Positions 1 to 247 of a stretch of 3,057 nucleotides of DNA are shown in pieces. The notes under the pieces are model-generated. The model worked only from the letters and a program-made list of their open reading frames with translations, ran no database searches and had not been told where the DNA came from. The position numbers and the translations under genes were made by a program. Source of the DNA: Naegleria gruberi (taxonomy: Eukaryota); assembly GCA_000004985.1 (NCBI GenBank), contig GG739167.1; one strand, given 5' to 3'. Every line of letters starts with the position of its first letter. Within the stretch, counting starts at the first letter, position 1.

Positions 1-247
1 TATTCGCTCTCTCCTCCACCCAATCACATCGTTGATGATTTTCCTTGTATTGATCATAGACTTTCAACTCTTCAGTAAAATTCTTCTCCAACCGATGAGC
101 ACCTCCCGAATATGATAAATTATTTGATGATTTGATTTTGTATTTGGCGCAACCTCCGTGATAGGATGAATCGCTGGTCTTTTCTACACGTGGTGTTTGA
201 TATTTGACTTTACCACTTCTTGCCAAGCCTCCGTACATTATTGCCAT
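1..247 (-). CDS. Partial CDS, 5' end, continuing beyond the left edge of the window. It encodes a hypothetical protein whose N-terminus resembles ribosomal protein eS30 and whose remainder does not.
   Basis: Start: the ATG lies at 247-245 on the minus strand (plus-strand CAT). An in-frame TAG sits 21 nt upstream (plus-strand CTA at 266-268). The context AACAATGG has A at -3.

Reading frame: open for all 82 codons to the window edge, in about 68% AT sequence where a stop is expected roughly every 13 codons.

Translation: MAIMYGGLARSGKVKYQTPRVEKTSDSSYHGGCAKYKIKSSNNLSYSGGAHRLEKNFTEELKVYDQYKENHQRCDWVEERAN...

Residues 1-26 align with yeast eS30 as I recall it ([26 protein letters not shown]) at about 17 of 26 identities, including the MA start. 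The downstream sequence is not eS30-like; real eS30 continues with a basic stretch, KPKKPKGRAYKRLLYTRRF. Neither alternate frame gives that continuation, and there is no GT donor after VEKT. Confidence 0.6.
   Translation of the reverse strand, partial: MAIMYGGLARSGKVKYQTPRVEKTSDSSYHGGCAKYKIKSSNNLSYSGGAHRLEKNFTEELKVYDQYKENHQRCDWVEERAN

Follow-up and report, generated by a model that had tools for sequence, protein, structure and literature searches.

Gene A is a reading frame on the minus strand at the left end of a 3,057-nucleotide stretch of Naegleria gruberi DNA (contig GG739167.1 of assembly GCA_000004985.1; this whole stretch, with a G+C content of about 30%, is hereafter called the window). 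It belongs to a genuine protein-coding gene without introns, annotated but uncharacterised, of which it covers the 5′ half. With moderate confidence, we assign its product to a family of proteins of Naegleria and Willaertia that derive from the ribosomal protein eS30 and that would still dock at the eS30 site of the small ribosomal subunit. Docking at that site is favoured because the invariant positions of the family are those that are invariant in eS30, because the eS30-like module is N-terminal, and because this module is still basic.

The frame begins with the ATG at 247–245 and is open for 82 codons up to window position 1 (translation: MAIMYGGLARSGKVKYQTPRVEKTSDSSYHGGCAKYKIKSSNNLSYSGGAHRLEKNFTEELKVYDQYKENHQRCDWVEERAN). 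An earlier reading of the window, made from its letters alone (the sequence-only reading), had described the frame as open for at least 56 codons beyond residue 26 and the continuation as non-basic; both descriptions hold, with 9 lysine or arginine residues against 8 aspartate or glutamate residues in positions 27–82. A word-indexed homology search with the 82-residue fragment returned no match. When 1.84 billion representative proteins were scanned exhaustively with HMMER, the whole fragment (82/82 residues, 100% identity; E = 9.6e-49) was found in a 169-residue N. gruberi protein (P0001; XP_002673304.1/NAEGRDRAFT_80950), named ‘predicted protein’ in its source database, so that the window is nuclear DNA of N. 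gruberi. The full Gene A product accordingly has 169 residues, and its other 87 codons lie outside the window, past position 1; we read them from a near-identical metagenome allele, L007 (positions 61–573 of a 635-nucleotide contig of ERZ929261). Rfam and transfer RNA (tRNA) scans of the window gave no matches. The features of Gene A and its leader, all on the minus strand, are the following:

1..247, minus strand: 5′ part of the XP_002673304.1/NAEGRDRAFT_80950 gene, codons 1–82 plus one base (from the translation, the identity to P0001 and the uninterrupted allele L007)
128..247, minus strand: eS30-homologous module, residues 1–40, MAIMYGGLARSGKVKYQTPRVEKTSDSSYHGGCAKYKIKS, from the eS30 N-terminal tail through the GRAKKR motif (from Pfam, the Protein Data Bank [PDB] profile and hhalign)
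80..127, minus strand: residues 41–56, SNNLSYSGGAHRLEKN, probable diverged remnant of the C-terminal third of eS30 (YNRRFVNV..GGKRxMNPN) with most basic residues gone (from pairwise alignments only)
2..79, minus strand: variable, mildly acidic linker, residues 57–82, with predicted helices, leading into the conserved C-terminal module beyond the window (from the family alignment and AlphaFold2 [AF2])
248..305, minus strand: A/C-rich, G-poor 5′ leader and upstream region (from the sequence; conserved in allele L007, and similar in composition to the DNA 5′ of unrelated Naegleria genes)
103..108, minus strand: Gly-Gly codons (TCG GGA GGT) of the third Y-x-G-G motif, SYSGG
153..158, minus strand: Gly-Gly codons (CAC GGA GGT) of the second motif, YHGG, at the glycine position of eS30 GRAKKR
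228..233, minus strand: Gly-Gly codons (TAC GGA GGC) of the first motif, MYGG, at the eS30 HGS position

The likeness to eS30 was first seen in residues 1–26, for which the sequence-only reading gave about 17 identities in 26 positions. Exactly 17 of 26 were counted against yeast eS30 (sequence taken from the PDB match), and the similarity is significant: Pfam Ribosomal_S30 (PF04758; gathering threshold, 27 bits) matches residues 6–33 of the window fragment with 29.4 bits (E = 9.5e-7). Full-length P0001 scores 26.8 bits, slightly below that threshold, and its relatives score 30–35.5 bits, apart from two members with 13 bits or no match. When all PDB chains were searched with the 82-residue fragment (phmmer), the 60 matches listed, out of 67, were eS30 chains throughout (best E = 2.5e-5). 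The N-terminal tail and core motif of Gene A, MAIMYGGLARSGKVKYQTPRVEKT, stand at the mature N-terminus, as they do in eS30. Profiles of the family extend this result: one matches PDB eS30 over positions 5–40 (E = 1.3e-7), the N-terminal profile reaches canonical eS30 proteins in a database of 5.8 billion sequences (about 50 bits; E of about 1e-8), and hhalign pairs columns 1–40 of the family with columns 1–40 of ten canonical eS30s (probability 98.6%; E = 7e-16), setting GGCAKYKIKS of Gene A opposite eS30 RGRAKKRMQY. Judged by these comparisons, the similarity of the Gene A N-terminus to eS30 is significant and, for the family as a whole, the match is unambiguous.

The part after residue 26, which had been taken as unrelated to eS30, is thus eS30-like to column 40 by hhalign and aligns collinearly, if weakly, with eS30 to residue 56 in pairwise alignments. 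In the latter, SNNLSYSGGAHRLEKN falls opposite RFVNITLTGGKRKMNPN of Chaetomium eS30 and opposite KRFINAPVGLGGKRVQPN of Euglena eS30 (tblastn, 247..80; 37% identity, one three-residue gap). The profile–profile alignment with eS30 ends at column 40, and the basic eS30 C-terminus (YNRRFVNV...GKRxxPN) has only weak pairwise collinearity with residues 41–56; the net charge of this segment is +1, versus +5 to +6 (+3 in one) for the C-terminal part of canonical eS30. We regard residues 41–56 as probably a diverged remnant of the eS30 C-terminus, to judge from their alignment, and genuinely non-eS30 sequence as beginning at about residue 57. The family’s C-terminal module was also considered as a second, diverged eS30 copy, and this was rejected (hhalign probability, 0.07%).

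Ten N-terminal positions are invariant or nearly so in the family (G6, R10, G12, K13, V14, T18, P19, V21, G32 and K35), and each of the ten is also invariant in canonical eS30. Where eS30 has its decoding-centre histidine (His5), most members have histidine, tyrosine or tryptophan; Gene A has tyrosine, and histidine is present in P0014 and in allele L007. The latter differs from the window allele by I3R and one extra histidine codon (MARMYHGGLAR), which restores the canonical eS30 histidine position; it is otherwise identical across the coding overlap with the window, and its leader differs only by small indels. At the place of the central eS30 motif GRAK(K/R)R, Gene A has GGCAKYK, with G32 and K35 conserved. 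The lysine-rich eS30 stretch EKQEKKKKK has become EKTSDSSYH in Gene A, and other family members retain more basic residues here. Gene A also departs from eS30 in size and isoelectric point (pI), with 169 residues and a pI of 9.18 for the full protein versus 58–67 residues and pI 11.3–12.0 in the canonical set. The N-terminal modules of the family nevertheless carry a net charge of +6 to +12 over 40 residues and are still basic.

Profile searches brought together at least 19 family members: four from N. gruberi, five from Naegleria lovaniensis, two from Naegleria fowleri, two from Willaertia magna, and several from metagenomes. Among them is an N. gruberi paralogue, P0014, that is 69–72% identical to P0001. 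In the databases, every one of them is labelled only a hypothetical or predicted protein. In the databases searched, no member was found beyond Naegleria, Willaertia and related environmental sequences; the searches done gave none from animals, and a scan for the pattern NHKKW[HY]R(N) confirmed no relative on viral contigs or on JGI metagenome contigs. The family alignment contains three conserved blocks. Block 1 is the eS30-like N-terminus (GSLARSGKVKYQTPRVxKT..Y.GG.KKFR.KSS.N..YKSGAHRLE), which stands at the extreme N-terminus in every member, as in free eS30. A variable linker separates it from block 2 (LSNSxHKFNTxKGxxRLE), which is followed by a confidently predicted helix (AF2 predicted local distance difference test [pLDDT] score, 84–96), and block 3 is the near-invariant NHKKWHRNHPKDGFYQxRxxF; many members end in an acidic tail. 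The family-specific C-terminal module comprises 70–120 residues. AF2 models of the full protein (pLDDT 61) and of the C-terminal module (pLDDT 69) consist of helices only, including low-confidence ones at residues 56–70 and 76–82, and Foldseek found 0 matches for them in the PDB. The members are all previously uncharacterised, and the comparisons describe a variant family of eS30 that is limited to Naegleria and Willaertia and whose conserved C-terminal module is an orphan.

That Gene A is a real gene follows from its relatives. The N. fowleri protein P0013 and the N. lovaniensis protein P0002 are encoded in the same neighbourhood, with EF-hand and NPL4-like genes upstream and a Kelch-BTB gene downstream; a second orthologue pair, P0016 and P0015, likewise shares its surroundings (genes for a Cse1-like importin and a His_Phos_1 protein upstream, RING genes downstream). 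Both syntenic N. fowleri/N. lovaniensis pairs are single-exon open reading frames (ORFs); for the N. fowleri orthologues and for one from N. lovaniensis, the single exon gives the protein exactly on translation. By the Nei–Gojobori method, the ratio of nonsynonymous to synonymous substitution rates (dN/dS) in the two pairs is 0.27 and 0.18 overall at a dS of about 1, with 0.13 and 0.16 for the eS30-like part and 0.33 and 0.19 for the remainder. Both halves of the family proteins are under purifying selection.

These data bear on the simplest alternative, namely that Gene A is an ordinary RPS30 gene whose intron follows codon 25 or so, or else an RPS30 pseudogene in decay, and that the in-frame continuation is coincidental. 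The window stops before the stop codon and could not by itself have excluded this. Allele L007, however, has an uninterrupted 170-codon ORF that ends in TAA, and a tblastn search of all other frames of L007 and of the window revealed no canonical eS30 C-terminus, a possibility that the sequence-only reading had raised for checking. The continuation, moreover, contains blocks conserved across at least 19 proteins, its dN/dS is 0.18–0.33 in the non-eS30 part, and the exact single-exon orthologues described above agree. We reject this alternative as extremely unlikely; a pseudogene-derived ORF, which the sequence-only reading had entertained, is likewise rejected in view of dN/dS values of 0.13–0.33 at a dS of about 1 and of the conserved C-terminal blocks. 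As a separate observation, the deposited 208-residue model of P0002 is not a straight translation of its locus (L004, 3001–4008), where the uninterrupted ORF encodes 179 residues; the extra C-terminal 30-odd residues of the model come from a predicted intron, and the annotated tail is probably a gene-model artefact.

Another proposal for Gene A had been a recent chimera, to which RPS30 gave its promoter, its leader and its first 26 codons and in which these were fused to unrelated sequence. It would accord with the strongest identity being in residues 1–26 and with a C-terminal module unrelated to eS30, but the eS30 homology extends to residue 40 and plausibly to residue 56, and the same architecture, with syntenic orthologues, in three Naegleria species and Willaertia indicates that the arrangement is ancient. 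Nor does the leader speak for such a capture. Its A/C-rich, G-poor composition is as the sequence-only reading described (A 0.55, C 0.30 and G 0.05 over 60 nucleotides), but A/C-rich leaders are also found on unrelated Naegleria genes, such as the neighbouring NPL4-like gene (A 0.47, C 0.27, G 0.02). Because unrelated neighbouring genes have a like composition, the leader says nothing about a ribosomal-protein promoter, and we rejected it as a signature of ribosomal-protein genes. With a generic leader, an eS30-like part of at least 40 residues, and perhaps the entire protein, and an old architecture, we hold a recent chimera to be highly improbable. The third of the earlier proposals, a diverged paralogue, is supported: each genome has several divergent copies of this conserved Naegleria/Willaertia family, whose N-terminus is homologous to eS30, and Gene A is one of them.

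An apparent internal repeat of Gene A can be understood in the same terms. The protein contains the motif Y-x(0,1)-G-G three times (MYGG, YHGG and YSGG; post hoc shuffle P of about 3e-4), and its best off-diagonal self-match has a P of 0.015–0.04. The plus-strand words CCTCC(C/G), which the sequence-only reading had noticed near 105, 157 and 231, are at 103–108, 153–158 and 228–233 and are the reverse complement of GGA-GGN Gly-Gly codons. The first two Tyr-Gly-Gly motifs are located at the conserved glycine motifs HGSLAR and GRAKKR of eS30, and the third, YSGG, falls opposite eS30 GGKR in weak pairwise alignments only. The most fitting interpretation of the three-fold pattern is therefore that it was inherited with the eS30 scaffold and that a tyrosine was added before each motif, and not that a tandem duplication took place.

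What such a protein might do is suggested by the place of eS30 in the ribosome. eS30, a ribosomal protein specific to eukaryotes, is located at the shoulder of the 40S subunit between helices h16 and h18 of 18S ribosomal RNA (rRNA), with its N-terminus directed toward the A-site decoding centre, and three of its basic C-terminal residues line the messenger RNA (mRNA) channel (PMC8354635). A conserved histidine in its tail inserts beside the codon–anticodon helix (PMC5119991), and the N-terminal tail influences tRNA selection and stop-codon readthrough (PMC5119991; bioRxiv 10.1101/2023.06.19.543857). In yeast, substitutions of K3, H5 and R10 alter stop-codon readthrough, and R10 is reported to contact the anticodon stem of the A-site tRNA (bioRxiv 10.1101/2023.06.19.543857). 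C-terminally FLAG-tagged eS30 supports yeast growth (bioRxiv 10.1101/2023.06.19.543857) and C-terminally tagged eS30 has been used in human cells (PMC8354635); because such tagged proteins work, a C-terminal extension should be sterically tolerated.

The origin and function can be outlined as follows. The family arose from eS30; it has kept the first 40 residues and probably, in degenerate form, what follows them, while losing most of the Lys/Arg cluster—the lysine-rich linker, most strongly in Gene A—and the basic C-terminus of the mRNA channel. The family-specific C-terminal module was likely gained through an ancient fusion or extension. We propose that the protein still docks on the rRNA of the small subunit, where eS30 does or close by. 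It would take the place of eS30 in some of the ribosomes, or stand in for it transiently as Rlp24 and Mrt4 do for eL24 and uL10, and the new C-terminal module would thereby be placed at the shoulder near the mRNA entry channel, where it could modulate or block translation.

The principal alternative is that these proteins bind RNA or nucleic acid outside the ribosome and reuse the basic peptide derived from eS30 there; the nucleolus, messenger ribonucleoprotein particles and stress granules are examples of such places. Where they bind would then be independent of their eS30 ancestry. This would suit proteins that are predicted to be largely extended or disordered with one helix, that diverge fast among paralogues and that carry less basic charge than eS30; the His/Trp/Lys-rich NHKKWHRNHP could itself bind nucleic acid or metal. 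Set against it, the invariant positions are exactly those invariant in eS30, including residues implicated in contacts with tRNA and the decoding centre, and the module is always placed at the extreme N-terminus; both are easier to understand if the original binding site was kept. We consider a role away from the ribosome possible but unlikely, and retain docking at the eS30 site as the preferred explanation. Several observations nonetheless weigh against ribosomal docking. Paralogues are only 35–50% identical to one another, unlike core ribosomal proteins, which suggests a looser and possibly non-ribosomal role. Gene A is the least basic member, with a net charge of +6 versus +11 to +13 in canonical eS30, and this should weaken rRNA binding. 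Blocks 2 and 3 have no homologue by Pfam, PDB sequence profile or Foldseek and so provide no functional hint, and AF2 predicts no confident fold besides the one helix. Finally, literature searches found no expression, localisation or ribosome-association data on the family, and no canonical Naegleria or Willaertia eS30 appears among the 120 listed of 1931 eS30-type matches, so that paralogy to eS30 is itself a matter of interpretation.

The last point raises the converse possibility that the family is the only eS30 of Naegleria, the canonical short protein having been lost and the extended proteins serving as functional ribosomal subunits. The absence of a canonical eS30 from the listed matches, and from the literature, is in keeping with this, as is the retention of the invariant N-terminal positions. 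Absence among 120 of 1931 matches means little, however. In a cluster look-up for a canonical Naegleria eS30, one match was the eS30 of Euglena; the literature yielded no relevant paper, whether searched by locus tag or accession or for Naegleria together with eS30 or RPS30. Against this possibility stand features that would be atypical for an essential, stoichiometric protein, which in the alignment of canonical sequences is more than 60–70% identical: each genome has four to five paralogues at 35–50% identity, the basic mRNA-channel C-terminus is lost, and the pI is 9–10 versus about 12. We regard this possibility as very unlikely. The term ‘paralogue’ of eS30 is one that we infer from copy number and divergence.

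A more specific and tentative version of the preferred reading, which we put forward as a speculation that is possible but unlikely, concerns alternative small subunits. One of several eS30-like proteins may replace eS30 or transiently stand in for it; the retained N-terminal tail, with its H/Y/W variants at the decoding-centre histidine position, may tune A-site decoding or stop-codon readthrough; and the C-terminal NHKKWHRNHPKDGFY module at the mRNA entry may silence or specialise ribosomes, for instance during encystment or the amoeba-to-flagellate switch. In its extreme form, this speculation would merge with the one just discussed, the family being the only eS30 of Naegleria. If docking at the eS30 site is correct, a conserved and selected family that keeps the decoding-centre tail and swaps the mRNA-channel end for a new module would offer a natural experiment on how ribosomes vary, hibernate or are assembled; its lineage is deep-branching, and the pathogen N. 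fowleri belongs to it. If the proteins are not bound to ribosomes, they would still be a clear case of the recruitment of a ribosomal-protein peptide into a new protein family. We consider the interest of the family moderate at present, and high if ribosome association proves true.

Comparison with known systems places the family closest to eS30 itself, with which it aligns collinearly and significantly over 40 residues from Met1, (H/Y)G(S/G)LAR(A/S)GKVKxQTP(K/R)VxK....G(R/G)xAK, in a module that is basic and predicted to be extended. It differs in length (169 residues in Gene A versus about 60), in pI (9.2 versus about 12), in its loss of the lysine-rich linker and mRNA-channel C-terminus, in its added module of 70–120 residues and in the several divergent copies per genome; eS30 is a stoichiometric component of the 40S subunit between h16 and h18, and the family is predicted to dock at or near that place. 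Rlp24 (eL24-like), Mrt4 (uL10-like) and Rlp7 (uL30-like) each combine an RNA-binding domain homologous to a ribosomal protein with a C-terminal extension and are encoded separately from the gene for that ribosomal protein; they act on the 60S subunit, are encoded by one gene copy each and are conserved throughout the eukaryotes. To our knowledge, no eS30-like assembly placeholder has been described. The Gene A family resembles these proteins in joining a domain homologous to a ribosomal protein to a C-terminal extension; it differs in being multi-copy and confined to Naegleria and Willaertia, in deriving from a 40S protein, and in having a function that is only proposed.

In the FUBI–eS30 fusion (FAU) of holozoans, an N-terminal ubiquitin-like domain must be cleaved off (PMC8354635). 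Gene A is alike in that its eS30 part is encoded within a longer polypeptide, but this part is N-terminal from Met1, with a free N-terminus, and the extension is C-terminal and not ubiquitin-like; Gene A gave no match to a ubiquitin-family Pfam entry and shows no diglycine cleavage motif at the junction. Human and yeast eL29 have the N-terminal motif KNHTxHNQxRKWHRNGIKKP, whose KWHRN pentapeptide and His/Lys-rich context recur, without statistical support, in the family motif NHKKWHRNHPKDG. We treat this resemblance as chance. The C-terminal family profile found no eL29 chain in the PDB at E values up to 10 and no Ribosomal_L29e in Pfam, and neither the eL29-like reading of NHKKWHRNHP nor an eL39-like reading of SFHKFNT was supported in PDB and Pfam profile searches.

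Two further proteins depart from canonical eS30. P0042, of 88 residues from a metagenome of the European Nucleotide Archive, has a canonical eS30 N-terminus, a middle part with its basic residues reduced (AQTSEQTNETGRVKMRSKFNKRY) and an unrelated tail rich in lysine and glutamate. To judge from this protein, new C-termini may have been joined to eS30-derived sequences on more than one occasion. P0008 (Anaeramoeba flamelloides KAJ3435580.1, 93 residues) is annotated as eS30, has a normal C-terminus and carries a tandem duplication of the N-terminal 31 residues that is either real or an artefact of annotation or assembly.

The remainder of the window contains other sequences of note. On the plus strand, a frame is open for 130 codons from 2664 to the right edge at 3057 (…GVRVAKYDDPPISEHSEDELTDEQSKKPTKRFESYTKDENGKFSTEVCFRGSTEEFITEFQRHIRNKSSANCNRRINRRNNIKP); it has no in-frame ATG at its start and no significant Pfam match, and may be an exon of a neighbouring gene. 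At 363–530 on the minus strand, two leucine-rich repeat (LRR) units of the ribonuclease-inhibitor type (…TNNQIGDEGSKHISEMKRLISLDIGNNLISDEGVKYISEMKQLISQENR*; Pfam LRR_6, E = 5e-6) also appear as a 72-nucleotide direct repeat (377–438 and 449–510). The stop codon of this frame, at 363–365, lies 116 nucleotides upstream of the Gene A ATG on the same strand, and the frame is probably either a gene fragment or the terminal exon of an LRR gene. Adjoining the start of the LRR reading frame, at 509–558, is a perfect 23-nucleotide palindrome (TAGTAACTATATATCTACTATTA/TAATAGTAGATATATAGTTACTA) with a 4-nucleotide loop; it may form a hairpin, or represent a foldback element or the footprint of an insertion. 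An inverted repeat of about 70 nucleotides (854–1113 and 2000–2070) brackets some 0.9–1.2 kb of AT-rich non-coding DNA. Because its right arm (2000–2070) pairs with three left segments (854–878, 1011–1043 and 1090–1113; 88–96% complementary), the left arm appears to be interrupted by two insertions, and the whole looks like a degraded miniature inverted-repeat transposable element (MITE) or foldback-type transposon.

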